A stretch of 64,000 bases of DNA from Thermoanaerobaculia bacterium (GCA_036397015.1 DASWJT010000119.1:12248-76247), one strand, 5' to 3'; shown: positions 4,396 to 63,809, counted from the first letter of the stretch. The notes: generated by a model not told the origin, from the sequence alone. Made by a program: numbers and translations.

Positions 4396-4398
4396 GCG

Positions 4399-8941: not shown

Positions 8942-8977
8942 TCTAGTCCGCGGCTCTGACGTTAGGATCCGCACGCA

Positions 8978-13493: not shown

Positions 13494-13515
13494 CCGGCGG
13501 AGGAGCGACCTTACG

Positions 13516-42726: not shown

Positions 42727-44334
<1,608 letters not shown>

Positions 44335-44367: not shown

Positions 44368-45954
44368 CTACCCGCCCGGTTCGGACCGCCGCGGAGCGGT
44401 CTCCGCCGCGCCGGACGTCGGCCTGCGGGCGCCGTCGTCCGCGCGCATTTCGTACTCGAAGAGGCGGACGCCGCGGTGCTCGCGCACGGCCACGCGGCGA
44501 AGACCGGGGCGCTGGTCGAGCGCCGCGAGCGCCCGGGCGAGATCTCCTCGCCAGTCGAGATCCTCGACGACGAAGAAGCGCCTGATCCCACGGTCGAGGG
44601 CCCAATCGATACGGCGGAGGTCGCTGTCGGAGACGGCGACCGAGTCGAGCGCGCCGATCCGGCGCAGGTGGTAGCGGAGCGCCAGCGTCCGCGAGACGCC
44701 GATCGCGAGCACCGGGTACTCGGGCGAGCTCTTCGCCGCCAGCTCGGCCGCCGCCGCGCGCCAGTCGGCGTTCTGCTTGTAGACCGTCCAGCGCTCATCC
44801 TCGACGTACCAGCCGACGTACGCCGCGGCCGCGAGAGCGAGCCAGAGCGCCGCGGCGACCTGCCGCGCCCGCGGCCGGGCGAACGACCGCGCCCCCCACG
44901 CCGCGAGCAGCGCGTAGAACGGCAGCGCCCAGAAGGCGTAGCGCTCGATGTAGAGGTGGCGGTAGCCGGCGAGGCTGAGCGCCCAGAGCGCCGCCGGTAG
45001 GGCGACGAGGCAGCCGACGAGCAGGCGCTGGCGAGCGCCGCCGGCGAGCGCGCGGCGGATGCCGAGCGCGAGCACGACCGCCGCCGCGATCTGCACGGCG
45101 ACCAGTCCCGGCCGCGCGGCGAGCGCCGCGAAGGAGGCACGGTACGGGTTCGTCGGCCAGAGCGTGTTGCCGTGCGCGCACCATTGGCCGAAAAACATCC
45201 ACCCCTCGAAAGCGTCGAACTCGCGCAGGAAGCCCTGCCCGGCGCGCAAGTTGCCAGAGGATCGTTTCGCCATCACCAGGGCGACCGCCGCGAGCCCGGC
45301 GAGCGCGTGCGCAGCGAGCAGGCGCCGGCGCGCCGGCGGCGGCGCCGAGAGCGCGAGGAGCGCGAGCGGCACGACCGCCACGATCGCCAGGTAGTGGGTG
45401 AAGAAGGCGGCCGCGAGCGCGGCGGCGGCGAGGCCCGCCGCGGCCCAGGTCGGAGAGCGATCCGCGCAGCGCGCCGCGAGGAGCGCCGCGGCGACGACGA
45501 GGAGCGCGAGCAGCGCGTACGGCGTCGCCTCCTGCGAATACCAGACGTGGGCGGGCGCGAGACAGAGCCAGGCGGCGGCGAGCCGTGCCGTCGGCACGTC
45601 GATCCACCGCCGCGCGAGCTCGTAGGTGAGCACGATCGAGCCGAGGCCGAAGAGGAGCGACGGCAGCCGCACGACGACCTCGTGGTCGCCGACGAGCGCT
45701 ACCCAGCCGAAGAGCAGCAGACGGTAGAGCGGCGCCGCCATCGACCGCAGCAGCGAGTCGAGGATCTCCTGCCAAGTCGCGAAGCGCTCGTGCGTCGAGT
45801 AGAAGACCTCGTCGTACCAGAGACTTTCGCCGAAGCGCGGCAGGCGCGCCGCGAGTGCCAGGGCGACGAGCAGGAGGCGATCGGTGCGCGGGTCGCCGGC
45901 GCCGCGGGACGTCGCGCCGGCGGCCGGCTCCGAGGGCTCTCGAGCTTTGAGCAT
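44368..45954 (-). CDS. glycosyltransferase family 39 / ArnT-PMT-like polytopic membrane protein
   Basis: ~12 TM helices. N-terminal region [13 protein letters not shown] resembles the GT39 DE-loop. Aromatic-rich loops. Length 528 aa. Confidence 0.65.
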
Positions 45955-46036
45955 CGACGAAAGCCCATGCTACGCGAGTCGACGCCCTTCTCCTCCTCGA
46001 CGCGCTTCGCCGGCCGCGTCTAGACTCTCTTCGCCC

Positions 46037-46717
46037 ATGACGCCCGATCGCGCGGCTCCCTCCGACGGGGGCGACGGAGGCTGGGCGGGCGCCGCCACGC
46101 GGCTCCACCTGCTCGGCACCGGGCTCCTCGCCGAGGAGCTCTTTGCGCTCGCCCTCCACGCCGGCATCGAGGTCGCGGCCTTCGTCGAGAATCTCGATCG
46201 CGACAAGGCGGGGGGAGCGCTGTGCGGGCGTCCGATCGTCTGGGTCGACGACCTGCCACCGGGGTCGGCCTGCGTCTGCGCCCTCTCGACCACCCGCCGC
46301 GAGCGCTACGTCGAACAGGTGCGCGACCGCGCGCGCTTCGTGCGCCTCGTCCATCCGAGCGCGCTGATCCTGCCCGGCGGTGAGCTCGGCGCCGGCACCG
46401 TGGTCTCGACCGGCGTCCTCGTCGGCAGCAACACGCGCCTCGGCGCGCACGTCTTCGTCAACCGCGGCGTGGCCATCGGCCACCACACGACGATCGGTGA
46501 TCTGGTGACGCTGCAGCCGCGCGCCAACGTGGCGGGGGTGGTGACGGTCGGCGATCGCGCCTGGATCGGCATGGGCGCCATCGTCACCGAGCGGCGGTCG
46601 ATCGGCGCGGGCGCCGTCGTCGCCGCCGGCGCGGTGGTGCTCGCAGACGTGCCGGAGCGCTGTCTGGTCGCCGGCGTGCCCGCCACGGTGCGCCAGCGCG
46701 ACATCGAGCCGCGCTGA
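46037..46717 (+). CDS. sugar O-/N-acetyltransferase, NeuD/PglD-like (left-handed beta-helix hexapeptide repeats)
   Basis: ATG at 46037. N-terminal Rossmann-like sugar-nucleotide-binding part (LHLLGTGLLAEELFALALHAGIEVAAFVENLD). C-terminal hexapeptide repeats (VFVNRGVAIGHHTTIGDLVTLQPRANVAGVVTVGDRAWIGMGAIV). Confidence 0.75.
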   Translation: MTPDRAAPSDGGDGGWAGAATRLHLLGTGLLAEELFALALHAGIEVAAFVENLDRDKAGGALCGRPIVWVDDLPPGSACVCALSTTRRERYVEQVRDRARFVRLVHPSALILPGGELGAGTVVSTGVLVGSNTRLGAHVFVNRGVAIGHHTTIGDLVTLQPRANVAGVVTVGDRAWIGMGAIVTERRSIGAGAVVAAGAVVLADVPERCLVAGVPATVRQRDIEPR

Positions 46718-46736
46718 GCGCGCCGGCCGTCCGGCC

Positions 46737-47897
46737 TCACCACAGGCCGTTACGCACGCCTTGCCAGTAGTAGAAGAGCCCGGAGCCGAGATGCAGCGCG
46801 AGGAGCGCGGCGAGCCCCCCGTTGGCCGCCGCGCGCCAGCCGCGCCAGCTCTCGCGGCGCGCCGCGACGTGGACGAAGAGCTCGACCGAGAGCAGGAAGA
46901 CGACGTAGATCGCCAGGTAGCGCCCCCAGCTCCAGTTGCCCGCATAGCCCTCGCCGCGCAGGTAGAGCAGCGCGTACTGGGCGAACGCCACCGCGAAGAC
47001 CGCCCAGGCGTAGAAGTGCTCTGGGCGCCGCCGCACCTCGCGCCAGTGGACGGCAGCGAGCAGCGCCGGGAAGGCGAGCGAGCGCGCGATCGAGAGCGGG
47101 ATGTCGGCCGAGTACACGCGCCAGGCGCGCCAGGGCCCGACCACGATCGTGCCGAGGCTGTCGGAGGTCAGGAACTGCCAGGCGAGCACGGCGGCGGGCG
47201 CCGCCGCGATCGCCGCCGTGCGCAGCGCGATCCGCCCCAACCGGAGACCTCCGCGTCGACCCCGCCAGACCTCGAGCGCCGGCAGGACCGGCAGCCAGGC
47301 GGCGACGTAGCTCGGCTTGACGAAGCACTGCAGCGCCGCGAGCAGCGACGTCGAGACGGCTCGGCCGCGCCACGACGCGACGAAGAGGGCGAGCACCAAC
47401 GGGAAGACGACGACCGTCGTCGGGTTGTGGAAGATCAGCCCCGACATCTGACCCAGGTGAACCGCAGAGTGGGCGCTCCGCAAGGGGTGGCGGGCGGCGA
47501 AGGTGATCGGCGCGAGGAAGAGCAGCGCGGCAGCCACCGCCGCAGCCCGCGCCGGCGCCATCTCGCGCCCCAGCCAGCGCGCCGAGAGCACCGCCTTGGC
47601 CGCCGTCGCCGCCGTGGCTAGGAGGATTGCCGCCGACGCCAAGTCGCGCGGGGGAGCCCACAGACGCGAGAGCGCCAGAACGAGCAACTCGAAGCCGAAG
47701 CGCTCGGAGTGGGCGGCGCGGGCGCGCTCCATCTCCCGGGCGAACCGGAGGTGGCCGCCGAAGTCGCTCGGCCCCGCGACCATGCGCTCGAAGAGCGGCC
47801 AGAACAGGCACGCGACGCCGAGCGCCAGAGCAGCGAGGGCCACGGCCCGGCGCCGGGAATCGGCAGCGGGGCCCGCACGAGGGACGAGATGCGCCAT
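46737..47897 (-). CDS. polytopic membrane protein (~10 TM helices), function unknown
   Basis: Hydrophobic, W/F/Y-rich composition that is not shadow-like. No recognisable motif. Located inside the glycan-modification island. Confidence 0.5.
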   Translation of the reverse strand: MAHLVPRAGPAADSRRRAVALAALALGVACLFWPLFERMVAGPSDFGGHLRFAREMERARAAHSERFGFELLVLALSRLWAPPRDLASAAILLATAATAAKAVLSARWLGREMAPARAAAVAAALLFLAPITFAARHPLRSAHSAVHLGQMSGLIFHNPTTVVVFPLVLALFVASWRGRAVSTSLLAALQCFVKPSYVAAWLPVLPALEVWRGRRGGLRLGRIALRTAAIAAAPAAVLAWQFLTSDSLGTIVVGPWRAWRVYSADIPLSIARSLAFPALLAAVHWREVRRRPEHFYAWAVFAVAFAQYALLYLRGEGYAGNWSWGRYLAIYVVFLLSVELFVHVAARRESWRGWRAAANGGLAALLALHLGSGLFYYWQGVRNGLW

Positions 47898-48052
47898 TCG
47901 CCAGGATCTCGCGGCCGATCCTACCGCCCGCGGCGGCCACGCCCCGGACGCCGTCGCCGCGATAGCATCCGCCGTCGACTCGGGAAGGCATCGCGTTCCT
48001 GCCGGGCGCCACGGCCTGCCGCCGCCCGCACCGAGCGCAGAGAGGAAGCGTC

Positions 48053-48886
48053 GTGAGCCGCAGCCTGCACGGCAAGTTCGTCCTCAACGTCTGCCTCACC
48101 GGCATGGTCGGGCGGAAGCGGCACAACCCCCATCTGCCGATGACGGTCGAGGAGATCACGCGCGACGCCGAGGAGTGCATCCGCCTCGGCGCCTCGATCG
48201 TCCACGTCCACGCGCGCGACGACGACGAGGAGCCGGACTGGCGGCCGGAGACCTACGAGCGCATCGTGCGGGCGATCCGCGCCGTGTCGGCCGACGTTCT
48301 CGTCTGCGTCTCGACGAGCGGCCGCAAGGTGACCGACGTCGAGCGCCGCGCCGCCTGCCTCGACATCGACCCCCGCCCCGACATGGCGTCGCTCACCCTC
48401 GGCTCGCTCAACTTCCTGCGCGAGGGCGTGGTCAACAGCCCCGAGACGGTGCGCGCCCTCGCCGCGCGCATGGCCGAGCGCGGCATCCTGCCCGAGCTCG
48501 AGATCTTCGACCTCGGCATGGCGCGGGCGGCGGCGCGCCTCGTCGACGAGGGCGTCGTTCGCCGCCCGGCCTACGCCAACATCCTGCTCGGCAACGTCGG
48601 CACCGCCAGCACGACGCCGGCCGACCTGGCGGCGATCCTCGGCCACCTGCCGCACGACCTCGTGCGTTCGCTCGCCGGCATCGGCGGCGAGCAGCTGCGC
48701 GCCAACCTGCTCGGCCTGCTCTACTGCCACGGCGTGCGCGTCGGGCTCGAGGACAATCTCTTCCTCGACGCCGCGAAGACGCCAGCGACCAACCGCCAGC
48801 TCGTCGAGCGCGTCGTGCGCCTCGCCGCGGAGCTCGGGCTCGTACCCGCCTCGGGCGCCGAAGTGCGCGCCGCGCTCGCGCTGTGA
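48053..48886 (+). CDS. BKACE family enzyme (3-keto-5-aminohexanoate cleavage enzyme-like, DUF849)
   Basis: GTG at 48053. N-terminal KFVLNVCLTGMVGRKRHNPHLPMTVEEI and metal-ligand histidines (IVHVHARD) are characteristic of Kce/BKACE TIM-barrel enzymes. Length 277 aa. Confidence 0.75.
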   Translation: MSRSLHGKFVLNVCLTGMVGRKRHNPHLPMTVEEITRDAEECIRLGASIVHVHARDDDEEPDWRPETYERIVRAIRAVSADVLVCVSTSGRKVTDVERRAACLDIDPRPDMASLTLGSLNFLREGVVNSPETVRALAARMAERGILPELEIFDLGMARAAARLVDEGVVRRPAYANILLGNVGTASTTPADLAAILGHLPHDLVRSLAGIGGEQLRANLLGLLYCHGVRVGLEDNLFLDAAKTPATNRQLVERVVRLAAELGLVPASGAEVRAALAL

Positions 48887-50007
48887 GGGACCGCCCGCCG
48901 GACACCTCCGTTCCGCTGCACCGACCGTGGATCGGCGACGCCGAGCGCCAGGCTCTGGCGCGCGTTCTGGCGCGCGGCGAGCTCGCCGGCAACGGCGAGG
49001 AGTGTCGCGAGCTCGAGTCGGAGCTCGGCCGTCGGCTCGCGGTGTCCCATGCCCTCGCCGTCTCTTCGGCGACGCACGCGCTCGAGATCGCCATGCACCT
49101 GCTCGATCTCGCCGGCGGCGAGGTCGTGCTGCCTTCGTTCACCTTCCCGTCGGTGGGCAACGCCGTGGTGCGCGCCGGCGGGCGGCCGGTCTTCTGCGAG
49201 GTCCGCGAGCCGGACCTCAACATCGACCTCGACCACGCCCTCTCGCTCGTCGGGCCGCGCACCCGCGCGCTCGTCGTCACCCATTACGCCGGGCATCCGG
49301 TCGACCCGGCGGCGAGCCCGGTGCCGGTAGTGGAGGACGCCGCCCACGCCCTCGGCAGCCGGCTCGGCGGCCGCTCCTGCGGCACCCTCGGCCGCTTCGG
49401 CTGCCTGAGCTTCCACGCCACCAAGAACGTCGTCGCCGGGGAGGGCGGCGCGCTGCTCGTGTCCGATCCCGGGGCGGCGCGCGCGGCGCGCATCTTCCGC
49501 GAGAAAGGCACCAACCGCGACGAGTTCCTCGCCGGGGAGGTCGCCTTCTACAGTTGGGTCGGCCTCGGCAGCTCGCTGGTCCTGCCCGAGCTCGGCGCCG
49601 CGCTCGCGCGCGCTCAGCTGGCGCGGCTCGACGACATCACCCGCCGTCGGCGCGCGGTCGCTGCGCGCTACGAAGCCGGCCTCGGCGAGCTCGAGCGCCG
49701 CGGCGAGCTGCGCGTCGTGCGCTGCGTCGAGGGCGAGAGCTGCCACCACGTCTTCGCCGTCCTCGTCGCGCCGGAGCGGCGGGCGCGCCTGCTCGCCCGC
49801 CTGCGCCAGCTCGGCGTCGGCGCCGCCTCGCACTTCGTGCCGCTGCACGCCTCGCCGTTCGGGCGCGCGGTCGGGCGCGCGCCGGCGCTGCCGCGCACCG
49901 AGCGGCTCGCCGCCTCGCTCGTCCGCCTGCCGATCTTCCCGACGCTCGCCGAGGCGGAGCAGGAGCGGGTGATCGACGCCGTGGAGAGCGCGTGCCGCAC
50001 GAGCTGA
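48883..50007 (+). CDS. DegT/DnrJ/EryC1/StrS family sugar aminotransferase (PLP-dependent)
   Basis: GTGA overlap with the upstream gene. Motifs PWIGDAERQALARVLARGELAGNGEE, VVLPSFTFPSVGNAVVRAGGRPVFCEV and LSFHATKNVVAGEGG (PLP lysine). Confidence 0.85.
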   Translation: MRDRPPDTSVPLHRPWIGDAERQALARVLARGELAGNGEECRELESELGRRLAVSHALAVSSATHALEIAMHLLDLAGGEVVLPSFTFPSVGNAVVRAGGRPVFCEVREPDLNIDLDHALSLVGPRTRALVVTHYAGHPVDPAASPVPVVEDAAHALGSRLGGRSCGTLGRFGCLSFHATKNVVAGEGGALLVSDPGAARAARIFREKGTNRDEFLAGEVAFYSWVGLGSSLVLPELGAALARAQLARLDDITRRRRAVAARYEAGLGELERRGELRVVRCVEGESCHHVFAVLVAPERRARLLARLRQLGVGAASHFVPLHASPFGRAVGRAPALPRTERLAASLVRLPIFPTLAEAEQERVIDAVESACRTS

Positions 50008-50702
50008 GCGCCGGCGAATCGCTCTCGATCGTCCTGCCCGTCTATCGCAACCGCGAGCAGCTGCCGGAGCTGCTCGCGCGGCTCGAGACGATGCTGACGG
50101 GAACCGGTCTCGCCTGGGAGATCGTCTGCGTCGAGGACGGCGGCGGCGACGGCTCCCGCGAATGGCTGGCCGAGCGGGCGGCGAGCGACGAGCGCCTGGT
50201 GCTGGTCGCCAACCCCCGCAACCTCGGCCAGCACGCCGCGATCGTGCGCGGCCTCCGGGCGGCGCGCGGGGGCCGCGTCGTGGTCATGGACGCCGACTTG
50301 CAGGACGCGCCGGAGGACGTGCCCACGCTGCTCGCCGCGTGGCGACCCGGCCTCGGCGCCGTCTTCGCCCGTCGCTCCACCGCCTACCAGCCGGCGCTGC
50401 GCGACTGGACGGGGCGGCAGTTCAAGCGCCTCGTTCGCCGTCTCGTCGGGCCGGGGCTGCCGGTGGGCGTCGGCACCTTCGTCCTCCTCGGCGCCGAAGC
50501 GCGCGAGCGCATCGCGGCGCGAGACGAGGCGCGGCCGTACCTGCCGCTCGCGATCGTGCGCACCGGCCTGCTGGTCGAAAGCGTCGCGATCGAGAAACGC
50601 GGGCGCAGCGCGCGGCGATCCGCGTACAGCGCGCTCGCCCGCCTCCGCCTCGCCTGGCAGGCGTTACGGGCGGCTCTCGGCTGGCGCCTCGGACGACCCT
50701 AG
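49992..50702 (+). CDS. glycosyltransferase family 2, polyprenol-phosphate sugar transferase type (ArnC/DPM1-like)
   Basis: N-terminal LSIVLPVYRNREQLPEL...EIVCVEDGGGDGS...VANPRNLGQHAAIVRGL...VVMDADLQDAPED (DxD) is typical of ArnC-like GT2. GTG start overlaps DegT by 16 bp. Confidence 0.8.
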   Translation: MPHELSAGESLSIVLPVYRNREQLPELLARLETMLTGTGLAWEIVCVEDGGGDGSREWLAERAASDERLVLVANPRNLGQHAAIVRGLRAARGGRVVVMDADLQDAPEDVPTLLAAWRPGLGAVFARRSTAYQPALRDWTGRQFKRLVRRLVGPGLPVGVGTFVLLGAEARERIAARDEARPYLPLAIVRTGLLVESVAIEKRGRSARRSAYSALARLRLAWQALRAALGWRLGRP

Positions 50703-51241
50703 GGCGACGCCGCTGGGCCGCGCTCTGCGCTCGGCTCGGGGAATCGCGCGAGCCGGTAGAAGGGACGCTCGTCGGCGAGTACCTCGAATCGGCCGGGAGG
50801 TTCGTCGGCGGGCAGGAGCGCGAGCTCGATCGGCAGCCGGTGCCGCCGGCGCAGGCCGTCGCGGCGCACGAGCGACGTCGAGTAGCGGATCGGCCGTCCG
50901 TCCGCCGTCCGCACCGGCATCATCAGGCGGACGGCCTGCCGCTCGTGGAAGAAGCGCGACGAGTAAGCGAGGTGGACGGTGCCGCCCGGCGCCACGGCGA
51001 GGTGCTCGGCGAGGCGGCTCCACGCCTCCCGCTCGGCGGCCACGAGCATCAGCAGGACCATGGCGTAGAACGCCGGCGCCAGCACGCGGTGGCCGCGCCA
51101 GTCGAAGGCGTCGTAGAGGAGGAGGACGGCCGCGAGGTGCGCGCCGCCGACGAGCCCGCCGGCGACGAGCAGCCGGTCGCGGCGAGCTCGGCGCTCATGC
51201 CACCGGGTGTCGCTCGTCGCGCGGCCGCTCGCCCGCCGCAC
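50699..51241 (-). CDS. hypothetical protein (one TM segment plus soluble domain)
   Basis: Non-shadow composition in the C-terminal part (SSRFFHERQAVRLMMPVRTADGRPIRYSTSLV). Its N-terminal 15 codons overlap the upstream gene, so the true start may be internal. Tail-to-tail 4-bp overlap with the GT2 gene. Confidence 0.35.
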   Translation of the reverse strand: MRRASGRATSDTRWHERRARRDRLLVAGGLVGGAHLAAVLLLYDAFDWRGHRVLAPAFYAMVLLMLVAAEREAWSRLAEHLAVAPGGTVHLAYSSRFFHERQAVRLMMPVRTADGRPIRYSTSLVRRDGLRRRHRLPIELALLPADEPPGRFEVLADERPFYRLARFPEPSAERGPAASP

Positions 51242-52256
51242 CCGCCGCCGCGCGCCGATCGGCCGCCAGCAGCAGCGAGCCGATCATGAGATTGGGCCCG
51301 TAGGCGACGGCGTGGCTGACCAGCGCGTACGCCGTCGCCGTCGCGAGCGGCACGCCGAGCAGCGTGCCGAGGGCGAGCTGCACCGCGGCGTGGTACGAGC
51401 CGACCGCCGCCGGAACGGGAACCAGGGCGCCGAGCACGGCGAGAAAGAGGAGAGGCGCCACGGCCAGCGCCGGCAGCTCGAGCCCGAAGGCGCGAAACAG
51501 GCACCAGTGGCCGGCGCAGACCACTCCCCAGAGCAGCGCCGACTGGCCCCCGGCGATGGCGAGCGCACCCTCGGTGCGGATGCCGGTGACGCCTGCGGCG
51601 AAGGCGCGGGCGCCGTCCAGCAGGCGCGCGCGGACGGTGCCCTGCGGAGCGCCGAGCCGAGCGCCGAGCGCGGCGCGCAGCGGGGGGGCCGCCGCCGCGG
51701 CGACGACGAGCGCGCCGAGCGCGGCGACCACGATCGAGAGCAAGCGCGATGCGCGCTGGAGATCGGCCCGCAGCTCGGCGCCGGCGGGCGAGGCGGCGCT
51801 CGGGGCGCCGAGACCGAGATAGACCGCAAGCAAGCCGAGGAGGCAGGCGAGATCCAGCAGCCGCTCGAGCAGCTGCGCCCCGAAGGCGAAGCTGCGGTCG
51901 ATCGGGTGACGACGTCCGAGCAGCCAGGGCCGCGCCAGCTCGCCGAGCCGGGCCGGGAGCACGACGAGCGCCACCCAGCCCGCGTAAGTGGCCGCGACGG
52001 CGGCGCCGAGCGGGACCTCGCCGCGCCGTCGGATCAGCGCGTGCCAGCGCCAGCCGCGCGCTGCGAGCGCCGCCGTCTGGAACAGCGCCGCCAGGGCGAC
52101 CCAGCGCCAGCGGGCGTCGCCGAGCTCTGCGACCACCGTCGCCGCGTCGACGCGGCGGAAGAACCAGGCGAGCAGAGCGCCCGCCAGCAGCAGGCCGAAC
52201 AGCAGCGCGCGCCCGCTGCTCCGAGCGGCGCCGGGCGCCGTCGATCCCGAGAGCAT
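51195..52256 (-). CDS. flippase-like / lysylphosphatidylglycerol-synthase-TM-domain (UPF0104, MprF N-terminal-like) membrane protein
   Basis: 8 predicted TM helices. N-terminus ALLFGLLLAGALLAWFFRRVDAATVVAEL is typical of this family. Start placed at the internal ATG (MLSGST...). The track ORF begins with TTG 12 codons upstream. Confidence 0.55.
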   Translation of the reverse strand: MLSGSTAPGAARSSGRALLFGLLLAGALLAWFFRRVDAATVVAELGDARWRWVALAALFQTAALAARGWRWHALIRRRGEVPLGAAVAATYAGWVALVVLPARLGELARPWLLGRRHPIDRSFAFGAQLLERLLDLACLLGLLAVYLGLGAPSAASPAGAELRADLQRASRLLSIVVAALGALVVAAAAAPPLRAALGARLGAPQGTVRARLLDGARAFAAGVTGIRTEGALAIAGGQSALLWGVVCAGHWCLFRAFGLELPALAVAPLLFLAVLGALVPVPAAVGSYHAAVQLALGTLLGVPLATATAYALVSHAVAYGPNLMIGSLLLAADRRAAAGAAGERPRDERHPVA

Positions 52257-52292
52257 CGCTGCATCCTGCTGTACGCCGCGCCGGCGCTGCAA

Positions 52293-52733
52293 CTACGCGG
52301 CGCCGCCGCGAGGCCGCCGCGCGGCGAGGGCGACGAGCGCACAGAGCCGGGCCTCGGTGAGCGAGAAGCGGTAGCCGCGCAGGTCGACCGTCGCCTCCGC
52401 GGCGAAATCACTCTCGACCGCGGCGCGCACCCGCGCCCGGAAGCGCTCGTCGCCGAGACCGGTCGCGGGCCACGGCCCGAGGAGCTCGTCGAGAGCTCGC
52501 CAGACCGCCTCCGGGTCGAAGCCGGCAGTGGCGGCGAGGTGCTCCTCGCCGAGCCTGGCCGCCGAATCGAGGAAGCGCTCGTCGATCCAGAAGCGCGCCT
52601 CGCGCCTGCGGAAACGGCGCCCGCCGACGGCGGCCCACCACCCGCCGGCGACCGCCACGCCGCCGGCAGCGGCGAGCGCCGCGGCGAGCAGCCGTCGCCG
52701 CGTCGGCCCGGCGCGGGTCGTCGGCGCCGTCAC
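52293..52733 (-). CDS. Tat-signal small subunit associated with GMC oxidoreductase (gluconate 2-dehydrogenase gamma-subunit-like)
   Basis: GTG start overlaps the TGA of the GMC gene (GTGA). Twin-arginine motif TRRRLLAAALAAAGGVAVAGG. The rest has real-protein composition (FWIDERFLDSAARLGEEH...). The remainder of track ORF 52293..53972 is shadow of the GMC gene. Confidence 0.5.
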   Translation of the reverse strand: MTAPTTRAGPTRRRLLAAALAAAGGVAVAGGWWAAVGGRRFRRREARFWIDERFLDSAARLGEEHLAATAGFDPEAVWRALDELLGPWPATGLGDERFRARVRAAVESDFAAEATVDLRGYRFSLTEARLCALVALAARRPRGGAA

Positions 52734-54277
52734 GGCAGGCGCGCCTCGAGGTGTTCGGCGAGGCGCAGCGCGAGCGCCACGATCGTCAGCGTCGGGTTGA
52801 CGTAGCCGCTCGCCGGAAACACCGAGCTGCCGGCGATCCACAGGTTGTCGACGCCGTGCACGCGGCAGTCGCGATCGACGACGCCCCGCGCCGGATCGTC
52901 GGACATCCGCGTCGTGCCGAGATGGTGCGCCGCGCCGCGCCACGGGATCTCGCCGTCGAATCCGGGCGCCGTCCACGCGCTCGGCGCGACGCGGCCGATC
53001 GAGAAGCGGCCGAGCTCGTGCACCAGGGCGCGCGCGGCGGCGGCGAGCGTGCGGCGGAACTCCGCGCCGAGCCGCAGGTCGAGCACGAGCCGGCGGCAGC
53101 CGAGCGCGTCCCGCTCCTCGCCGAGCGTCACTCGGCAAGCCGGATCCGGCGCCATCTCCTGCATCGAGTCGAGCCGAGCGCGCTTCATCGCCGGCAGCCC
53201 GCCCGGCCGGCGCGACCCGCTCTCGTCGATCTCGTTCGTCAGCCACGGCAGCAGCCGCGCGGCGTCGGCGACGAAACGCCGCGTCCCGTCGCGCTGCCTG
53301 CGGTCGAGGTCCCAGACCGGCTCGCCCGCCGGGGCGAGCTCGATGCCGAATTGCTGCAGCCGCTCCCGCGTCACGAGCTCGGCGGACGGGCAGAGGTCGG
53401 GCAAGAGCACGGGCGAGCCGGCGATCGGCCCGGCCACGCGCGCCAGCGATTCCGCGAAGCCGAAGACCTGCGCGACCTCGACCACCGGATGCTCCTGGAA
53501 GCAGCGGCCGACCTGGTCGTGCCGGTTGCCGAGCCCGCGCGGCTCGACGCGGTTCGAGAGCAGGAGCAGCCGCGGGTTCTCGAGGCCGCCGCAGGCGAGG
53601 ACGAAGGCGCGCGCGGCGACCGTCGCGCGCCGGCCGCCGAGCGTCCGCACGACGAGCTCGCGCACGTGCCCGCCGCCCGGCTCGGCGACGAGCTCCGTCG
53701 CGTTGGCGTGCAGCACGACGCGCACCGACCGCGAGGCGGCGAGCTCGTCCCGATAGTGCGTCCCGAAGCGCCGCGGGCCCGCGGCGCGCCGCTGGCGGTA
53801 ACGCAGCTCCAGCCGGTGCGCGCCGCCGGGCGGCATCGGGTCGCGGCGGAAGAGCGCCGGATCGCCCGCCGGATTCCGCGGCCACGCCGAGCCGCCGCAG
53901 ATCTCGAGCGCCTCGGCGTAGCGCGAGGCGACCTCCTCCCGGGCGATCGGCCAACCCGGATACGCCTGCCACGGGCGCGCTGCGAAGTCGACCTCGCCGA
54001 GAACTCCCATCTCCCCGGTCCAGTGCACCGAGGTGCCGCCGAAGACGCGCTGGCGCGGCAAGCGGAGGTCGAAGTAGCGCTCGCCGCGCACCTCGCCGCG
54101 GTTGAGCTCCTGGGCGTCGGCCTCGAGCTCGAGCCCGCCGCTCTCGAGCACGAGGACCTGCCGCGGGCCGGCCGTGAAACGCCGTGCCAGCGCGATTCCC
54201 GCCGGGCCGCCGCCGATGATGCAGAGATCGGCGCGCAGGTGGCTCTGGTCTGCGAGCTCCCGCAGGTCGAGGATCAC
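52730..54277 (-). CDS. GMC family oxidoreductase (FAD-dependent, choline/glucose dehydrogenase-like)
   Basis: FAD motif DLCIIGGGPAG. Conserved GMC C-terminal active-site region (GAAHHLGTTRMSDDPARGVVD...NLWIAGSSVFPASGYVNPTLTIVALALR). GTG at 54277 is preferred. The ATG at 54334 adds an Arg-rich 19-aa extension. Confidence 0.8.
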   Translation of the reverse strand: MILDLRELADQSHLRADLCIIGGGPAGIALARRFTAGPRQVLVLESGGLELEADAQELNRGEVRGERYFDLRLPRQRVFGGTSVHWTGEMGVLGEVDFAARPWQAYPGWPIAREEVASRYAEALEICGGSAWPRNPAGDPALFRRDPMPPGGAHRLELRYRQRRAAGPRRFGTHYRDELAASRSVRVVLHANATELVAEPGGGHVRELVVRTLGGRRATVAARAFVLACGGLENPRLLLLSNRVEPRGLGNRHDQVGRCFQEHPVVEVAQVFGFAESLARVAGPIAGSPVLLPDLCPSAELVTRERLQQFGIELAPAGEPVWDLDRRQRDGTRRFVADAARLLPWLTNEIDESGSRRPGGLPAMKRARLDSMQEMAPDPACRVTLGEERDALGCRRLVLDLRLGAEFRRTLAAAARALVHELGRFSIGRVAPSAWTAPGFDGEIPWRGAAHHLGTTRMSDDPARGVVDRDCRVHGVDNLWIAGSSVFPASGYVNPTLTIVALALRLAEHLEARLP

Positions 54278-54344: not shown

Positions 54345-55955
54345 TCACCTCGGGCCTTCCGCGGGGCCTCTTCCGGACGCCGCCGGCGGCGACGCGCGGC
54401 GATAGACCACCAGCTCGGGACTGATCTTGTCGAGGTTCGTCCTCGCCCTGCCGTGTCGCGACAGCCGCGCCGGGATGCGGCCGGCGTCGCGATGGGCCTC
54501 GATGTAGCCCGCGGCTCGCAGCACGCGCGCCCAGCGCAGCGATCGGCTCCATGCCGCCTCCGCGACGAGGTGCCGCGGAGCCCAACGGCGAAGCTCGCGC
54601 GCGAAGTAGGGCGGTTCTCCGAGCCCGACCTGCCGGCCGGCGAGCGCTGCCCAGTCGTGCTTGCCCAGCACCCAGGTCGTCGGTGCCGAGCCGCCGTCGC
54701 GCGCGATCCACTCGCGAATCGTAACTCGCGAGTCGAAGCGCAGCCGCAGGTCGAGCTCCGCGGCGCGTGTGCCGGAGTAGACGAGGATCGCCACGAGCGC
54801 GGCGCCGACGAGCCACCCGCGGCGCCGCAAGCGGGCGAGGAGGTCGTCGGCGCCCTCGCCCGCGAGCAGGACCGCCGAGAGCGCGATCGGCAGCAGGAAC
54901 CGGTCGTAAGCGCGCGGCAGCGCGAGCCACATGAAGAGCGCGTAGCCGATCGCCGCTGGCAGGTGGAATCCGTGTCGCCGCCGCCGCTCGCCGTCGCGCG
55001 CGATGGCCAGGAGACCCCACAACGCGAGTCCGATCGCCGGCAGGCCGAGGACGAACTCGAGATTGACCCCGGCCTGCCAGGCCTGCGCCAGCTTGCCCGC
55101 GACGCTCGCCTCGAATTCGGGGGCGAGTCGCGCCACCTCGCGGAGGGCCGCGAAATGGCCGCGGACTCCCTCCGGATTGAACGGCACGTTGAGGACGTAG
55201 AGGTAGACGGCCAGCGAGCTCGCGCCCGCCGCCAGCAGGCCCCGCCCGCCGAGCTCGCGCAGCGCGGTCCACCGCGCGGGCTGGAGCCCCGCGAGGCCCT
55301 CGTGCAGCGGCAGCAAAGCGCCGGCCGCGCAGACGGCGTAGACCGCCGCCTGGTCCTTGGTGGCCGCGGCGAGCGCCGCCAGCGCGCCCGCGCCCACCAG
55401 CGCGACGGCGCTCCCCTCGTCGAGAGCGCGCGCGAGGAGGGCGAGCGCGAGGACGAGCCACATCAGGTAGAGCGATTCGACGTTCCCCGTCTTGGCGTAG
55501 TAGGTCACCGTCGGGCTCGCCGCCCAGAGCAGCGCCGCGACCGCCGTGCCCCAGCCGAGCCCGATTCGCCGGCCGAGGGCGAGGAGCCCGAGGACCGTCA
55601 CGACGGTCGCCGCCACCGAGAGCGTCCGCGTCGCCAGCGCGTGACGCCGAAAGGTCGGCGCCGGCGCCGGCGAAGCGCCGGGGAGCGCGTCGCTCGCCGC
55701 CTGGCTCGCCGCCGCGGCGTAGAACATGAGCGGCGGATAGTAGTCGTGCCAGCCGTTCGCGAACCGCGCCTGTCGAGCGGCAGCGACGCGCCGGGGCGAA
55801 ATCTCGTCGGGCGCGACGCTGCGCTGGCCGACGATCCCCCAGTCGAGGGCGAACGCGAAGTGCGTCGCGCCGACGAGCACGATGGCCGTGGCTGCTCGCC
55901 TCCGCGACTTCGAGCCCAGATCCACTGTCGTCCCTCCGCCCGACCGGCCGCCCAT
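54345..55955 (-). CDS. polytopic membrane protein, possible GT39/GT-C-like glycosyltransferase
   Basis: ATG at 55955 (MGGRSGGGTTVDLGSKSRRRAATAIVLVGATHFAF). Motif HDYYPPLMFY plus ~11 TM helices. The upstream 55956..56261 extension is low-complexity. Its in-frame ATG at 56051 would overlap the divergent ATG at 56050. Confidence 0.5.
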   Translation of the reverse strand: MGGRSGGGTTVDLGSKSRRRAATAIVLVGATHFAFALDWGIVGQRSVAPDEISPRRVAAARQARFANGWHDYYPPLMFYAAAASQAASDALPGASPAPAPTFRRHALATRTLSVAATVVTVLGLLALGRRIGLGWGTAVAALLWAASPTVTYYAKTGNVESLYLMWLVLALALLARALDEGSAVALVGAGALAALAAATKDQAAVYAVCAAGALLPLHEGLAGLQPARWTALRELGGRGLLAAGASSLAVYLYVLNVPFNPEGVRGHFAALREVARLAPEFEASVAGKLAQAWQAGVNLEFVLGLPAIGLALWGLLAIARDGERRRRHGFHLPAAIGYALFMWLALPRAYDRFLLPIALSAVLLAGEGADDLLARLRRRGWLVGAALVAILVYSGTRAAELDLRLRFDSRVTIREWIARDGGSAPTTWVLGKHDWAALAGRQVGLGEPPYFARELRRWAPRHLVAEAAWSRSLRWARVLRAAGYIEAHRDAGRIPARLSRHGRARTNLDKISPELVVYRRASPPAASGRGPAEGPR

Positions 55956-62084: not shown

Positions 62085-63809
62085 TCATCTCCCTTCCACC
62101 GTCCGAGCCCGGCGCAGGTGGAGCGCGGCCGCGGCGTGGTGGGCGCGCAGGACAGTGGCCGTCGGCCGAAAGCCGGGCACCGTGCCGCCCGGCGGCTCGG
62201 CGAGAGCGTCCCTGTCCCACGCCACGATCCACAGCCGACTCGGGCTCGGCGCGGCGAGTTGTCGCCAGCGCCGCCGCAGCGCGAACTGGTGGTGCGCATC
62301 GCCGAAGTAGTAGAGCAGCGGCGGATCGCGGTAGCTCGAATCGAGGAGCACGAGATCTTCGGGAGCGAGGTGGTGCGCGAGCTCCCGCGCCAGGCCGGCG
62401 TAGTCGCGCGGCGTCGCTTGGGCGCGCCGGTAGTGGGCCAGCGAGGCGACCGAGACCGCGAGCAGAGCGACCGAGACGACTGCCGGCAGCCACGGACGCC
62501 GGCCGCACGCCCGTGCGCCGACGGCGACGAGCAGCAGGAGGTAGGGCAGGAAGACGACCGTGCCGCGGTCGACCAGAGCCCCGTGGAAGCGCGACACCGC
62601 GACCATGAGCAGAAGTGGAGCGACCGCGAGCACGGCGACCAGACCTCGCGCGTCGTCGGCGGCGTCCGTTCCTGTCGCCGTCAGGCGGCGCGGTGCCGCC
62701 GTGCGGACGAGGAGGACGCCGGTCACCGCGGCGAGGCCGAGCGGCAGCAGGGCGCAGGCGACGACCGCCGGGCGCACCGGGCCAGCCATCGCGGCCCAGC
62801 TCACGAAGCGCCAGACGGCGAACATCGATGCGAGCGCGAGCGCCGCGAGACCGGCGAAGATGACCCGGCCCGGGCGCGCGGCGAGAAACTCCACCTCTCG
62901 TCCGGCTTCCATCGCCGGCTGCGACGGTCGCGCGAGCGCGAGGAGCAGGAGCGCGAGCGTCCCGGCCGCGAGCCAAGTCGCGGGCACCGGCGCCGCCGGT
63001 GCCGCTCCCCAGAACGGCAGCCGAGTCGAGAACGCGTGGCCGAGCGCGAAATAGCCCCAGGGGCTCTGCTGGAACTCATTCACCGTCGCCGTCCGGTGCA
63101 GCAGCTGGGCGACGACCGGCACCGCGGCGATCAGGGCGCAGGCGAGCGCCGGCACGGCGGCGGGCACCGCTCGCCGGCGCAGCCCGCGCCAGGCGATCCA
63201 CAGCGCCTGCGCGGCGATCGCCGGCCAGGCGTAGAGCTGCGTCCACAGCGCCGCCGCCGTGGTCAGGCCATAGCCCCAGGCGAGCGCCGGCCGCGGCGCC
63301 TCGCGCAGGCGCACGAGCAGCAGCGTCGAGGCGAGGACGAGGAAGCTCGTCGGCACGTACATGCGGGCGAGCTGGCTCCAGTAGACATGCAGGCCGCTCA
63401 GCGCCACGAGCCCGCCGGCGAGCAGCGCCGTCCGCCGGTCGCCGGCGCGCAGGGCGAGGCGGTAGACGAGCGCGACCGACGCTGCCCCGAGCAGCGCCGA
63501 GGGAAGCCGCAGCGCCACGAGCCCATGGCCGAAGAGGCCGGTCCAGGCGAGCATGAAGGCGAAGTAGAGCGGCGGATGGCCGTCGGTGCGCATCCCCTCG
63601 ACGACGCCGCCGAGGTCGGTGCGCCGCGCGTTCGGGTGCACCCACTCCGGCATCGGCACGCCGGCGATGTAATTTTCCGGGTGGCCGAAGCTGCGCTCGC
63701 CGAGGCCGTCGAGCCGGACGAACAGGGCGGCGAGCGCGAGGGCGAAGGCGAGCGCGCTGGCGCGACGATCGACCTTCCCCAGGCGACGGCATACGGCGGC
63801 GAGGCTCAC
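62085..63809 (-). CDS. glycosyltransferase family 39 protein (ArnT / PMT_2-like)
   Basis: Motif RTDGHPPLYFAFMLAWTGLFGHG...ALRLPSALLGAASVALVYRLA is the hallmark N-terminal region of GT39. ~12 TM helices. GTG at 63809 (VSLAAVCRRLGKVDRRASALAFALAL) is preferred over the ATG at 63965, which adds a 52-aa Arg-rich shadow-like extension. Confidence 0.7.
   Translation of the reverse strand: MSLAAVCRRLGKVDRRASALAFALALAALFVRLDGLGERSFGHPENYIAGVPMPEWVHPNARRTDLGGVVEGMRTDGHPPLYFAFMLAWTGLFGHGLVALRLPSALLGAASVALVYRLALRAGDRRTALLAGGLVALSGLHVYWSQLARMYVPTSFLVLASTLLLVRLREAPRPALAWGYGLTTAAALWTQLYAWPAIAAQALWIAWRGLRRRAVPAAVPALACALIAAVPVVAQLLHRTATVNEFQQSPWGYFALGHAFSTRLPFWGAAPAAPVPATWLAAGTLALLLLALARPSQPAMEAGREVEFLAARPGRVIFAGLAALALASMFAVWRFVSWAAMAGPVRPAVVACALLPLGLAAVTGVLLVRTAAPRRLTATGTDAADDARGLVAVLAVAPLLLMVAVSRFHGALVDRGTVVFLPYLLLLVAVGARACGRRPWLPAVVSVALLAVSVASLAHYRRAQATPRDYAGLARELAHHLAPEDLVLLDSSYRDPPLLYYFGDAHHQFALRRRWRQLAAPSPSRLWIVAWDRDALAEPPGGTVPGFRPTATVLRAHHAAAALHLRRARTVEGR

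Follow-up and report, generated by a model that had tools for sequence, protein, structure and literature searches.

The window analysed here is a stretch of 64,000 nucleotides corresponding to a Thermoanaerobaculia MAG of 75% GC, the host being an uncultured acidobacterium. A first, sequence-only reading had placed six genes of a glycan-modification island at 44368–50702, and codon-position GC, which backed exactly these genes and their strands, together with the family assignments bore this out. The described translational coupling of the last three genes was equally real, with a 4-nt GTGA at 48883–48886 serving as both BKACE stop and DegT start, and with a 16-nt overlap between the DegT and GT2 genes at 49992–50007. 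The longest ORF of the NeuD-type gene begins at 45884; the 226-aa form from 46037 agrees with its orthologue at the related locus L156. The genes in and beyond this range are:

44368–45954, minus strand: PMT_2 GT-C membrane glycosyltransferase (ArnT/PMT-like), 528 aa (PF13231, 50.4 bits)
46037–46717, plus strand: left-handed beta-helix N-acyltransferase of the NeuD/PglD/PerB/VioB family, 226 aa (TIGR03570, 152.5 bits)
46737–47897, minus strand: multi-pass membrane protein, probable GT-C fold, 386 aa, or 368 aa from 47843 (AF2 and Foldseek)
48053–48886, plus strand: BKACE-family TIM-barrel Zn enzyme, 277 aa (PF05853, 264.5 bits, full length)
48883–50007, plus strand: DegT/WecE-type PLP sugar aminotransferase, 374 aa (PF01041, 270.9 bits)
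49992–50702, plus strand: short polyisoprenyl-phosphate-type GT2, 236 aa (PF00535, 83 bits)
50699–51241, minus strand: 180-aa ORF with hydrophobic segments (coding-frame GC3 signal)
51195–52292, minus strand: LPG_synthase_TM (MprF flippase-domain-like) membrane protein, 365 aa (PF03706, 136 bits)
52730–54277, minus strand: GMC-family FAD oxidoreductase, 515 aa (GMC_oxred_C, 83.9 bits)
54345–55925, minus strand: second PMT_2 GT-C membrane protein, 526 aa (PF13231, 40.4 bits)

The right-hand limit at 50702 proved too narrow. The structure matches of the GT2, the modelled GT-C fold (both described below) and the LPG_synthase_TM gene just outside the range indicate that the functional unit reaches at least to that gene, which is kept in convergent orientation beside GT2 or BKACE in L001, L002, L083/84, L156 and L159. 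The 180-aa ORF had no family match in Pfam or NCBIfam even at E ≤ 5, was not conserved among relatives and was missing from L156. Membership of the GMC oxidoreductase and of the second PMT_2 protein is possible but uncertain. NCBIfam matches to the former were weak and involved C-terminal residues only, and a search of L002 did not find a homologue; a similar spot is occupied by an FAD amine oxidase/DAO in L001, next to GT2 and LPG_synthase_TM, and in L155, next to GT2. The second PMT_2 protein gave a 33% tblastn match to the L001 PMT, which likewise flanks an oxidase, LPG_synthase_TM, GT2 and BKACE.

Strong matches of the GT2 among solved structures were limited to GtrB (5ekp), ArnC (9bhc, 8vxh and 9hwj) and DPMS (5mlz). 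It has the catalytic domain of polyisoprenyl-phosphate glycosyltransferases but not their C-terminal membrane helices. Short soluble GT2s such as PpgS require a membrane partner, and the LPG_synthase_TM protein (41.9 against a cutoff of 43.2 for the TIGR00374 flippase-like domain) is a candidate for either a flippase or such a partner. The PMT_2 protein at 44368–45954 had no sequence match among solved structures, but is presumed to be the final transferase using the lipid-linked sugar; L156 carries an orthologue at the same position, which is taken by PMT, DUF2142 or DUF2079 proteins in L160, L001, L083 and L002. Pfam and NCBIfam searches gave no family for the membrane protein at 46737–47897, for which just 10 homologues turned up among 5.8 billion proteins; an orthologue sits between the acyltransferase and BKACE genes in L156. 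Its AF2 model (pLDDT 82) nevertheless suggests that it is probably a GT-C fold glycosyltransferase, as the top Foldseek matches were all GT-C enzymes (AftA, STT3, ALG9, ArnT and EmbB; probability ~1, TM 0.45–0.51).

Since the GT2 is surrounded by two or three GT-C proteins and a membrane protein resembling a flippase, the island appears to encode a three-component periplasmic glycosylation system of the Arn/Gtr type. Known three-component systems, such as GtrA/GtrB/GtrC, CsbB/GtcA/YfhO and the mycobacterial PpgS/Rv3632/Rv3779, likewise combine a GT-C transferase and a polyprenyl-phosphate GT2 with a membrane protein that is small or resembles a flippase, all encoded together. Unlike these systems, the island has no GtrA-family flippase, carries several GT-C genes (one without family) and apparently has its donor sugar tailored in-cluster by the aminotransferase, the acyltransferase and the BKACE.

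The Arn-like logic that had been read from the sequence held at the system level (GT2, flippase-like protein, GT-C enzymes and a DegT near WecE and ArnB), but no Arn equivalog score was reached. ArnC (PRK10714) matched the GT2 with 88 bits against a cutoff of 529, over the N-terminal half only, and the ArnB equivalog scored 185 against 631 on the DegT protein. Since no gene reached the ArnB, ArnC or Kce equivalog cutoff, identification as an Arn locus was rejected. The order of steps in the proposed pathway would nonetheless resemble that of Arn (PmrHFIJKLM: ArnB, ArnA, ArnC, ArnD, ArnE/F and ArnT; lipid A Ara4N), running from DegT transamination over N-acylation, ArnC-type GT2 loading on polyprenyl phosphate and flipping to GT-C transfer. 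In contrast to Arn, the island lacks ArnA, the ArnD deformylase and ArnE/F, has a beta-helix acyltransferase and a BKACE in place of the folate-dependent formyltransferase, and uses a GT2 without membrane helices and a flippase candidate from an MprF-type family. The DegT protein is also nearer to WecE than to ArnB: its best solved relatives were WecE (6blg and 4piw), followed by TlmJ and ArnB, and its best NCBIfam match was dTDP-4-amino-4,6-dideoxygalactose transaminase (315.8 against a cutoff of 375). No gene for producing an NDP-4-keto sugar was present in the island.

The acyltransferase aligned to positions 2–201 of the 202 of TIGR03570, just below the cutoff (160.8). Its best solved relatives were PerB (4ea7), VioB (7txp), the PglB acetyltransferase domain (4m98), WeeI (4m9c) and PglD. 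With the nucleotide-sugar 4-amino N-acetyltransferases PerB, VioB, PglD and WeeI it shares the two-domain beta-helix family and the catalytic His, which is retained. Those enzymes, however, are acetyl-CoA users without a BKACE partner, whereas here it is the pairing that is conserved.

The BKACE itself falls in a large clade without a solved or characterised member. It branches apart from all solved members of the family, being only 31–34% identical to any of them, and its AF2 model (pLDDT 92) superimposed on both Kce and 3no5 with a TM of 0.90. Comparison with the characterised Kce active site revealed that H51, H53, E233, E150, R229 and D234 are conserved, so that the Zn ligands (H-x-H plus Glu), the catalytic Glu (E171 in PdKce; PMC11961710) and the Arg are all kept, while the clade has a pocket signature of its own (N12, M18, S89, T115, N176, N181 and A185). 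From these residues and the Kce-like fold, the enzyme looks active. The PF05853 family as a whole (Kce, PdKce/BKACE15, dehydrocarnitine and 3-oxoadipate cleavage enzymes) has the same TIM barrel, zinc site, catalytic Glu and Arg, and the family chemistry to be expected of the window enzyme would be the conversion of a beta-keto acid and acetyl-CoA into an acyl-CoA and acetoacetate.

The public annotation as '3-keto-5-aminohexanoate cleavage protein', and the Kce equivalog being the best NCBIfam match, could suggest that a catabolic enzyme, as in lysine fermentation or carnitine metabolism, stands in a glycan locus by chance. The Kce score, however, was 228 against a cutoff of 382, and the position of Glu14, a residue of known role in Kce, is Val in the window enzyme. 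Moreover, the window contains no lysine-fermentation genes, and the gene context is kept across phyla with translational coupling. The enzyme is thus no orthologue of Kce and, unlike the catabolic BKACEs, stands in a biosynthetic context beside acyltransferases; a catabolic role is strongly disfavoured and hardly credible.

The nearest relatives of the window locus, with BKACEs 57–79% identical, have the six gene orders below; L002, L156, L083 and L160 are independent metagenome contigs.

L156: PMT_2 / acyltransferase / GT-C-like / BKACE / GT2 / LPG_synthase_TM
L002: acyltransferase / BKACE / DegT / GT2 / x / LPG_synthase_TM
L083: DUF2142 / acyltransferase / BKACE / GT2 / LPG_synthase_TM
L160: acyltransferase / BKACE / GT2 / PMT
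L085: GT2 / BKACE facing acyltransferase / DegT
L162: BKACE facing DegT and a GT2-PglD-type fusion

The GT2 gene thus comes after BKACE or DegT in L002, L083, L156 and L160. We further counted 111 related BKACE loci flanked on each side by 900 nt or more; as these were gathered via BKACE sequence patterns, with near-duplicates among them, they do not represent independent events. A beta-helix acyltransferase of the PerB/VioB/PglD type lay within 400 nt of BKACE in 68 of the 111, on the same strand in 64 of these 68 and often with 4-nt overlaps. Six loci had an adjoining GNAT instead, 35 had no adjoining acyltransferase, and DegT was also present within 3 kb in 35 of the 111. Acyltransferases reached a density of 0.277 per kb beside BKACE, ~23 times the 0.0123 per kb of the rest of these loci, and the acyltransferase-linked loci span more than 12 phyla. 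This density, and the recurrence of the arrangement in L002, L156, L083 and L160, confirm that the grouping of the island genes is more than chance. A fortuitous insertion of BKACE was therefore not borne out, the enzyme being no chance neighbour in the glycan cluster. Its tie to the sugar aminotransferase, which had seemed the unexpected feature, stands as coupling in the window, but the conserved and tightest partner is the NeuD/PglD-type acyltransferase and not DegT, which is absent from L156, L083 and L160, three of the nearest relatives.

That two unrelated acyl-CoA-dependent folds, beta-helix and GNAT, partner one BKACE clade points to a CoA thioester as the shared link. With the corrections given above, the initial interpretation is supported as a whole, an unusually acylated amino sugar being the best fit among the alternatives it had offered. 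We give about even chances to the island being a three-component lipid-carrier glycosylation system for an N-acylated amino sugar, with the BKACE as its dedicated acyl-donor supplier. DegT would convert an NDP-4-keto sugar, supplied from elsewhere in the genome, into an NDP-4-amino sugar, while the BKACE, using a small beta-keto acid and acetyl-CoA, would release acetoacetate and furnish a scarce acyl-CoA (R-CO-SCoA) for amino-sugar N-acylation. The PerB/VioB/PglD-type acyltransferase would then move the acyl group from R-CO-SCoA to the sugar 4-amino group, the short ArnC/GtrB-like GT2 would load the N-acyl sugar on polyprenyl phosphate, and LPG_synthase_TM would flip the lipid-linked sugar or tie the GT2 to the membrane. 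On the periplasmic side, PMT_2 and the GT-C-like protein modelled here may, as GT-C enzymes, transfer the sugar to an envelope acceptor. We infer the direction of the BKACE reaction and the use of its CoA product as acyltransferase donor, as well as the carrier lipid, the flipping step and the acceptor. Our leading guesses for the donor are formyl-CoA, from malonate semialdehyde, or oxalyl-CoA, from oxaloacetate, since both precursors are ordinary metabolites and the cassette has no precursor-supply genes; formation of formyl-CoA from malonate semialdehyde is documented for one BKACE (PMC11961710). The pairing suggests an undescribed acyl-donor route for decorating cell-surface amino sugars, and our literature search found no paper linking BKACE to sugar N-acylation.

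Several points speak against this scheme. An opposite-strand gene separates acyltransferase and BKACE in the window, whereas in relatives the acyltransferase gene stands directly upstream; the island also has no source of an NDP-4-keto sugar, and DegT is missing from L156, L083 and L160. Where canonical BKACEs have a Tyr presumed to be important, the window enzyme has Phe, as does the non-cleaving BsfD described below, although 3no5, 3chv and 3fa5 have Phe there too. Moreover, 35 of the 111 loci have no adjoining acyltransferase, and the ribA / BKACE / methyltransferase / GGT clusters of L004, L006, L157 and L158 have the same active-site signature and no CoA-dependent acyltransferase, so that the product is perhaps not used solely as acyl-CoA donor. 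The BKACE might thus yield a reactive non-CoA product (a 1,3-dicarbonyl) or acetoacetate for several pathways (amino sugar, flavin/pteridine analogue and small amines), with the acyltransferase plainly N-acetylating. This would suit the occurrence of one signature in three unrelated contexts, and the BKACE-linked acyltransferases, when compared, had only generic family residues in common, with no specialised acyl pocket visible. It would also parallel BsfD, which forms a diketone that disturbs the chemistry of lumazine synthase (PMC12871164). We nevertheless hold it to be unlikely, as it leaves unexplained why two acyl-CoA-dependent folds are the dominant, often translationally coupled neighbours, and a free diketone has no obvious role in nucleotide-sugar pathways.

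BsfD, from flavophos biosynthesis (PDB 9zsc; preprint PMC12871164), likewise places a BKACE fold in biosynthesis rather than catabolism, and performs acetyl transfer and decarboxylation instead of cleavage. By this precedent, the BKACE might act after the acyltransferase, C-acetylating (with acetyl-CoA) and decarboxylating a sugar N-malonylated from malonyl-CoA to give an N-acetoacetyl sugar, from which the common N-3-hydroxybutanoyl group could derive. Tight translational coupling of acyltransferase and BKACE would suit consecutive steps, and the window clade, like BsfD, has Phe instead of the canonical Tyr (Tyr145/173), while one of its Arg residues aligns with Arg91 of BsfD. Both residues, however, also occur in 3no5, 3chv and 3fa5 and are not diagnostic, and BsfD has a ~20-residue loop insertion and a phosphonate substrate and lies outside the clade of the window BKACE. 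As the cassette has no conserved ketoreductase, the same signature occurs in sugar-free flavin-type and GNAT contexts, and a nucleotide sugar is far bigger than known BKACE substrates, we consider this order of steps decidedly unlikely.

Type I operons, found in Beta- and Gammaproteobacteria, contain the Ara4N pathway enzymes, and in L054 and L008 run ugd / GT1_4-like / acyltransferase / BKACE / DegT / UDP-4-keto-pentose synthase (the synthase scoring 527–597 bits against a cutoff of 294). Ugd, synthase and DegT match the sugar part of Arn, and acyltransferase plus BKACE stand at the step of the ArnA formyltransferase domain. As UDP-glucose dehydrogenase and the UDP-GlcA 4-oxidase/decarboxylase adjoin BKACE and DegT in these operons, the sugar itself could be the beta-keto acid, the BKACE extending or remodelling the chain of a UDP-4-keto-hexuronate before transamination. 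We regard this, and with it the earlier idea of a chain-extended sugar, as very improbable: neither ugd nor the decarboxylase occurs in the window or its nearest relatives, although the BKACE signature there is the same, a 4-keto-hexuronate is normally an enzyme-bound intermediate, and canonical cleavage would break up the sugar ring. The SDR association (about 9 loci) is also much weaker than the acyltransferase link.

A likeness to acyl-donor supply by the BKACE is offered by the flagellin viosamine island of Pseudomonas syringae (VioA, VioB, VioS and VioR), in which a small module provides a non-acetyl group, 3-hydroxybutanoyl, to a VioB-type acyltransferase acting on a DegT-made 4-amino sugar. 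There the acyl group is built via KAS III, a ketoreductase and a carrier protein, whereas here a single BKACE would suffice, starting from a beta-keto acid and acetyl-CoA.

The GC content of the window is about 75%, because of which plain ORF lists were full of spurious frames; genes were called from the codon-position GC pattern. This pattern bore out the six genes of the glycan-modification island on the strands on which they had first been described. The sequence-only reading had confined the island to 44368-50702, an extent that proved correct for the six genes but not for the end at 50702, beyond which minus-strand genes, including that of an LPG_synthase_TM protein, extend the island.

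Genes called in and around the island (window coordinates, strand; model scores against cutoffs)
44368-45954 (-), PMT_2 GT-C membrane protein, by Pfam
46037-46717 (+), acyltransferase of the NeuD/PglB/VioB family (TIGR03570; 152.5 bits against a cutoff of 160.8, model positions 2-201 of 202)
46737-47897 (-), membrane protein of no Pfam or NCBIfam family, whose model matches GT-C structures
48053-48886 (+), BKACE, a beta-keto-acid cleavage enzyme (PF05853 / DUF849; 264.5 bits against 24.8)
48883-50007 (+), DegT sugar aminotransferase (best NCBIfam match WecE-type dTDP-4-amino-4,6-dideoxygalactose transaminase, 316 against 375)
49992-50702 (+), GT2 glycosyltransferase, 236 aa (ArnC model 88 against 529, N-terminal half)
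50699-51241 (-), 180-aa ORF without family match
51195-52292 (-), LPG_synthase_TM protein, like the MprF flippase domain (TIGR00374, 41.9 against 43.2)
52293-52658 (-), 121-aa ORF without family match
52730-54277 (-), GMC oxidoreductase, FAD type
54345-55925 (-), second PMT_2 GT-C protein, by Pfam
62085-63809 (-), third PMT_2 GT-C protein, by Pfam

The overlaps behind the proposed translational coupling were confirmed: the motif GTGA holds both the stop codon of the BKACE gene and the start codon of DegT, and the end of DegT shares 16 nt with GT2. Rfam, promoter and terminator scans of the island yielded nothing relevant except the TPP riboswitch of thiC (RF00059, 42755-42859 (+), 59.8 bits against a gathering threshold of 54.3), which lies directly 5' of that gene (42847-44334) in an ordinary arrangement.

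Residues 8-277 of the BKACE match positions 1-274 of the 274 in PF05853, and its AF2 model (pLDDT 92.3) was paired by Foldseek with the characterised Kce (2y7e, TM 0.90, rmsd 2.1) and with the solved family member 3no5 (TM 0.91), at only 31-34% sequence identity to either. The active-site comparison with Kce that had been suggested earlier revealed that the Zn ligands (H51, H53 and E233), the catalytic Glu (E150) and an Arg (R229) are kept, and that all five are invariant in 123 members of the clade. E150 aligns with Kce E143 and PdKce E171, and R229 with R226 and R254, respectively; the roles of these residues come from work on PdKce and on BsfD, the BKACE-fold enzyme of flavophos biosynthesis (PMC11961710, PMC12871164), and replacement of PdKce E171 abolishes activity (PMC11961710). 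The clade further carries a signature that sets it apart from every solved member (N12, M18, S89, T115, N176, N/S181 and A185), and the five solved BKACEs included in a neighbour-joining tree all fell outside the large clade to which the window protein and the loci linked to acyltransferases belong. Judged by its profile match, modelled fold and aligned catalytic residues, the window BKACE is a true family member that lies outside every characterised subfamily. Its sequence is 100% identical to that of a protein in an NCBI 'Thermoanaerobaculia bacterium' MAG.

This BKACE is not a Kce, because it missed the cutoff of the Kce equivalog NF052387 (228.1 bits against 382) and carries a Val (Val19) at the position of Kce Glu14, the residue that Bellinzoni et al. 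reportedly described in 2011 as the acidic ligand of the substrate amino group. Across the clade this position is Val, Ile or Leu. Genes for lysine fermentation (aminomutases, 3,5-diaminohexanoate dehydrogenase) were not found among the 50 window genes or in the related loci. At another active-site position, Phe152 of the window protein, invariant in the clade, aligns with Kce Tyr145 and PdKce Tyr173, where the flavophos preprint describes Tyr as universal in canonical BKACEs and Phe in BsfD (PMC12871164). Phe152 was considered as a sign of BsfD-type chemistry and then dropped; it is given little weight because the solved members 3no5, 3chv and 3fa5 also carry Phe.

The nearest relatives of the island, with BKACEs of 57-79% identity, were obtained from exact-protein look-ups and lie on independent metagenome contigs.

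Gene order at the nearest related loci (AT, NeuD/PglD/PerB/VioB-type beta-helix N-acyltransferase)
L156: PMT_2 / AT / GT-C-like / BKACE / GT2 / LPG_synthase_TM, the window order minus DegT
L002: AT / BKACE / DegT / GT2 / x / LPG_synthase_TM, with a BKACE-DegT overlap of 4 nt as in the window
L083 and L084: DUF2142 / AT / BKACE / GT2 / LPG_synthase_TM
L160: AT / BKACE / GT2 facing PMT
L085: GT2 / BKACE facing AT / DegT
L162: BKACE facing DegT plus a fusion of GT2 and PglD-type acyltransferase
L001: PMT / amine oxidase / LPG_synthase_TM / GT2 facing BKACE

The fusion at L162 (10002-11468) is a 488-aa protein of GT2, PglD_N and hexapeptide acyltransferase parts, encoded between two DegT genes and convergent with the BKACE. 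DegT is absent from L156, L083 and L160, and is therefore not an obligatory partner. The sequence-only reading had coupled the BKACE to DegT; the overlap of the two genes is real, but the conserved partner turned out to be the acyltransferase and not DegT. Placement of the BKACE in unrelated contexts, which would have spoken against a shared function, was not seen among these near relatives.

The association was followed more widely by scanning one genome per species, which gave 80 loci with a BKACE 38-53% identical to the query, and by a metagenome scan, which added 67 loci with few close relatives among them. Neighbours were scored with HMMs built from the neighbour genes themselves, at the 111 loci where the BKACE had 900 nt or more of flanking sequence on each side. 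A beta-helix acyltransferase lay within 400 nt of the BKACE in 68 of these 111 loci (51 upstream, 17 downstream), counts that include near-duplicate contigs and come from loci picked by BKACE patterns, and that thus denote a strong association rather than a number of independent events. The acyltransferase was on the BKACE's strand in 64 of the 68 linked loci, frequently with 4-nt start/stop overlaps, and a GNAT acetyltransferase took its place in a further six of the 111. Within the same loci, acyltransferase density was 0.277 per kb adjoining the BKACE as opposed to 0.0123 per kb elsewhere. DegT was also present within 3 kb in 35 of the 68 acyltransferase-linked loci, and other genes that recurred nearby encode an SDR and glycosyltransferases from several families. 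Acyltransferase-linked loci are spread over Acidobacteriota, Gemmatimonadota, Actinomycetota, Planctomycetota, Verrucomicrobiota, KSB1, Nitrospinota, Desulfobacterota, Bacteroidota, Chlorobiota, Firmicutes, Melainabacteria, and Beta- and Gammaproteobacteria. We hold with high confidence that the BKACE is functionally tied to N-acyltransferases. The readings of the BKACE as a chance neighbour or as a catabolic Kce were rejected, given the conserved context and the failed tests of Kce membership.

The top solved relatives of the window acyltransferase are PerB and VioB. Its His149 aligns with PerB His141 (mutated in 4eaa; His125 in PglD) and is invariant in 38 BKACE-linked acyltransferases, in which only generic residues of the PerB/VioB family are conserved, speaking neither for nor against a special donor. 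A specialised acyl pocket was accordingly dropped as an argument.

BKACEs convert a beta-keto acid and acetyl-CoA to a new acyl-CoA and acetoacetate (R-CO-CH2-COO- + acetyl-CoA -> R-CO-SCoA + acetoacetate; PMC12871164). Since the dominant neighbours belong to two unrelated folds of acyl-CoA-dependent acyltransferases, the simplest link between the two activities is a CoA thioester. The BKACE would then make an acyl donor that the cell has from no other source, and the acyltransferase would use it; we give roughly even chances to the BKACE supplying the acyltransferases' acyl-CoA. We expect the beta-keto acid that it uses to be an ordinary metabolite, because the cassette holds no conserved gene for precursor supply.

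The same active-site signature was also found in BKACEs without a CoA acyltransferase, in clusters of the order ribA / BKACE / SAM-methyltransferase / gamma-glutamyltransferase. These contexts leave room for two other readings, in which the BKACE would make a diketone, as BsfD does, or would act on an N-malonyl group. The acyl-CoA supply reading draws on the acyltransferases of the linked loci. With one signature recurring in differing gene contexts, several pathways are served by a single enzyme with a single pocket, which fits a small, generally useful BKACE product.

The conserved ribA clusters were located on Salmonella enterica plasmid pRSE21 (L157, 6431-9295; NZ_CP034710.1), on a Streptomyces camelliae plasmid (L158, 1-7700; NZ_CP115301.1) and at L004 and L006, with Phenylobacterium and Streptantibioticus among the hosts. 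They carry riboflavin synthase as well, and rosB adjoins in Streptomyces. Spanning Gammaproteobacteria, Alphaproteobacteria and Actinomycetota, they resemble a gene cluster for a flavin or pteridine analogue that has not been described. The signature also recurs in BKACE / GNAT / methyltransferase units away from glycan loci. In a subclade of the BKACE clade, a GNAT stands in for the beta-helix acyltransferase (L062, 9956-11489; L029, 6128-8526; L055, 608-2957; all outside glycan clusters); a SAM methyltransferase often comes after this GNAT, which in one case adjoins a PLP decarboxylase. The methyltransferases of the non-glycan loci are only distantly related, so that no single BKACE-methyltransferase pair can be defined. 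At L087 (8263-10822) and L161 (6264-8822), the AT / BKACE pair follows a zinc alcohol dehydrogenase, a PF04199 cyclase/formamidase-like gene and a molybdenum hydroxylase, and no sugar genes were found near the pair at these two loci.

In Proteobacteria, the AT / BKACE pair is part of an arrangement that we refer to as the Type I operon. The order GT1_4-like / AT / BKACE / DegT was found in Pseudoduganella, Methylobacter, Hydrogenophaga and Ramlibacter, and two loci (L054 and L008) carry two extra genes, giving ugd / GT1_4-like / AT / BKACE / DegT / SDR. This operon of Beta- and Gammaproteobacteria (L054, 6514-12955; L008, 7722-13044; also L079 and L051) encodes a GT1_4-like protein of 518 aa, and its SDR is a UDP-4-keto-pentose synthase. 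On the UDP-glucose 6-dehydrogenase model its Ugd reached 590 bits, which falls short of the equivalog cutoff of 757 bits and exceeds the cutoff of the nucleotide-sugar dehydrogenase subfamily. The enzymes of the Type I operon are those of the Ara4N pathway, but without the formyltransferase, and the acyltransferase and BKACE would together perform the N-acylation step of ArnA's formyltransferase domain.

The idea of formyl-CoA arises because the Type I operon puts the two genes at that very step. PdKce converts malonate semialdehyde to formyl-CoA (PMC11961710), and oxaloacetate would yield oxalyl-CoA in a reaction related to that of the distant structural relative ObcA; formyl (from malonate semialdehyde) and oxalyl (from oxaloacetate) are accordingly our guesses for the acyl group. 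We think it rather improbable that the clade as a whole is a folate-independent source of one- or two-carbon acyl-CoA for sugar N-formylation or N-oxalylation, substituting for the ArnA domain in Proteobacteria and feeding the plasmid-borne flavin- or pteridine-analogue clusters.

The earlier description of the island as Arn-like holds for its working logic in outline, for which the Type I operon is the best backing, but not for orthology to ArnB and ArnC. The window DegT scored 185 against a cutoff of 631 on the ArnB model PRK11658, and the GT2 scored 88 against 529 on the ArnC model PRK10714, covering only positions 7-152 of 316. Moreover, the families of ArnA (formyltransferase plus UDP-GlcA decarboxylase), the deformylase ArnD and ArnE/F were not found in the window. 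PMT_2 proteins are present as candidates for an ArnT-type GT-C transferase; a match in sequence to the solved ArnT was not found. Compared with the Arn pathway, the island shares the logic while failing both ortholog tests and lacking ArnA, ArnD and ArnE/F.

The strong solved relatives of the GT2 (E < 1e-14) are exclusively GtrB, ArnC and DPMS, all polyisoprenyl-phosphate glycosyltransferases, and sequence similarity thus indicates that its catalytic domain is homologous to theirs; with 236 aa, it is without their membrane helices. The membrane protein at 46737-47897 has only ten homologues in a large protein collection. Modelled together with these (pLDDT 82), it matched exclusively GT-C structures at the top of the list (AftA, STT3, ALG9, ArnT and EmbB; probability about 1, with modest TM values of 0.45-0.51), and on the strength of this model it is probably a GT-C protein. 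Apart from it, three membrane proteins of the PMT_2 GT-C type are encoded inside a 20-kb part of the window. No GtrA- or EamA-type flippase was found in the island, where the LPG_synthase_TM protein (51195-52292) is present instead. A GT2 predicted to act on polyprenyl phosphate, a membrane protein resembling flippases, and GT-C transferases together make up the anatomy of a three-component lipid-carrier-dependent glycosylation system, and presumably the island works like the Gtr, CsbB-YfhO and PpgS systems. Its donor sugar would be tailored by the aminotransferase, the N-acyltransferase and the BKACE. An oxidoreductase of the FAD type (GMC, amine oxidase or DAO) lies near the GT2, LPG_synthase_TM and GT-C genes in the window (52730-54277 (-)), at L001 (6471-7901) and at the related locus L155 (6247-7461); this enzyme may oxidise the sugar, which would account for the island having no enzyme that forms a 4-keto sugar.

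To our knowledge, BKACEs have come almost solely from catabolism (lysine fermentation, carnitine, aromatic degradation), together with one recent phosphonate antibiotic pathway. No paper tying BKACE, DUF849 or Kce to sugar aminotransferases, NeuD-type acyltransferases or glycan loci was found in a search that left most subscription journals outside, so that an earlier description is possible, and the NetSyn preprint, which treats BKACE contexts, names no acetyltransferase or aminotransferase among the neighbours. The glycosylation logic is already known, and the acyl-donor module appears to be undescribed. A phylum-spanning BKACE clade wired to amino-sugar N-acyltransferases would be a new biosynthetic role for the family and would reveal how a special acyl donor for glycans of the cell surface can be made without ATP. 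It would also predict N-acyl envelope decorations in the poorly studied Acidobacteriota, Gemmatimonadota and Planctomycetota, and would correct the public label '3-keto-5-aminohexanoate cleavage protein' on clade members.

Elsewhere in the window, a TonB-dependent receptor agrees with a Gram-negative host. Four large FG-GAP / ASPIC (UnbV) repeat proteins, one of them with TPR repeats, are encoded in series at 1006-11164, and are followed at 11212-15132 (+) by asparagine-synthase-like, weak radical-SAM and FAD halogenase-like genes in one direction, which may represent a small cassette for modification or for a natural product. Finally, a 639-aa gene with good coding signal and no Pfam match occupies 24018-25937 (-), where the AT skew is unusually high (0.31).
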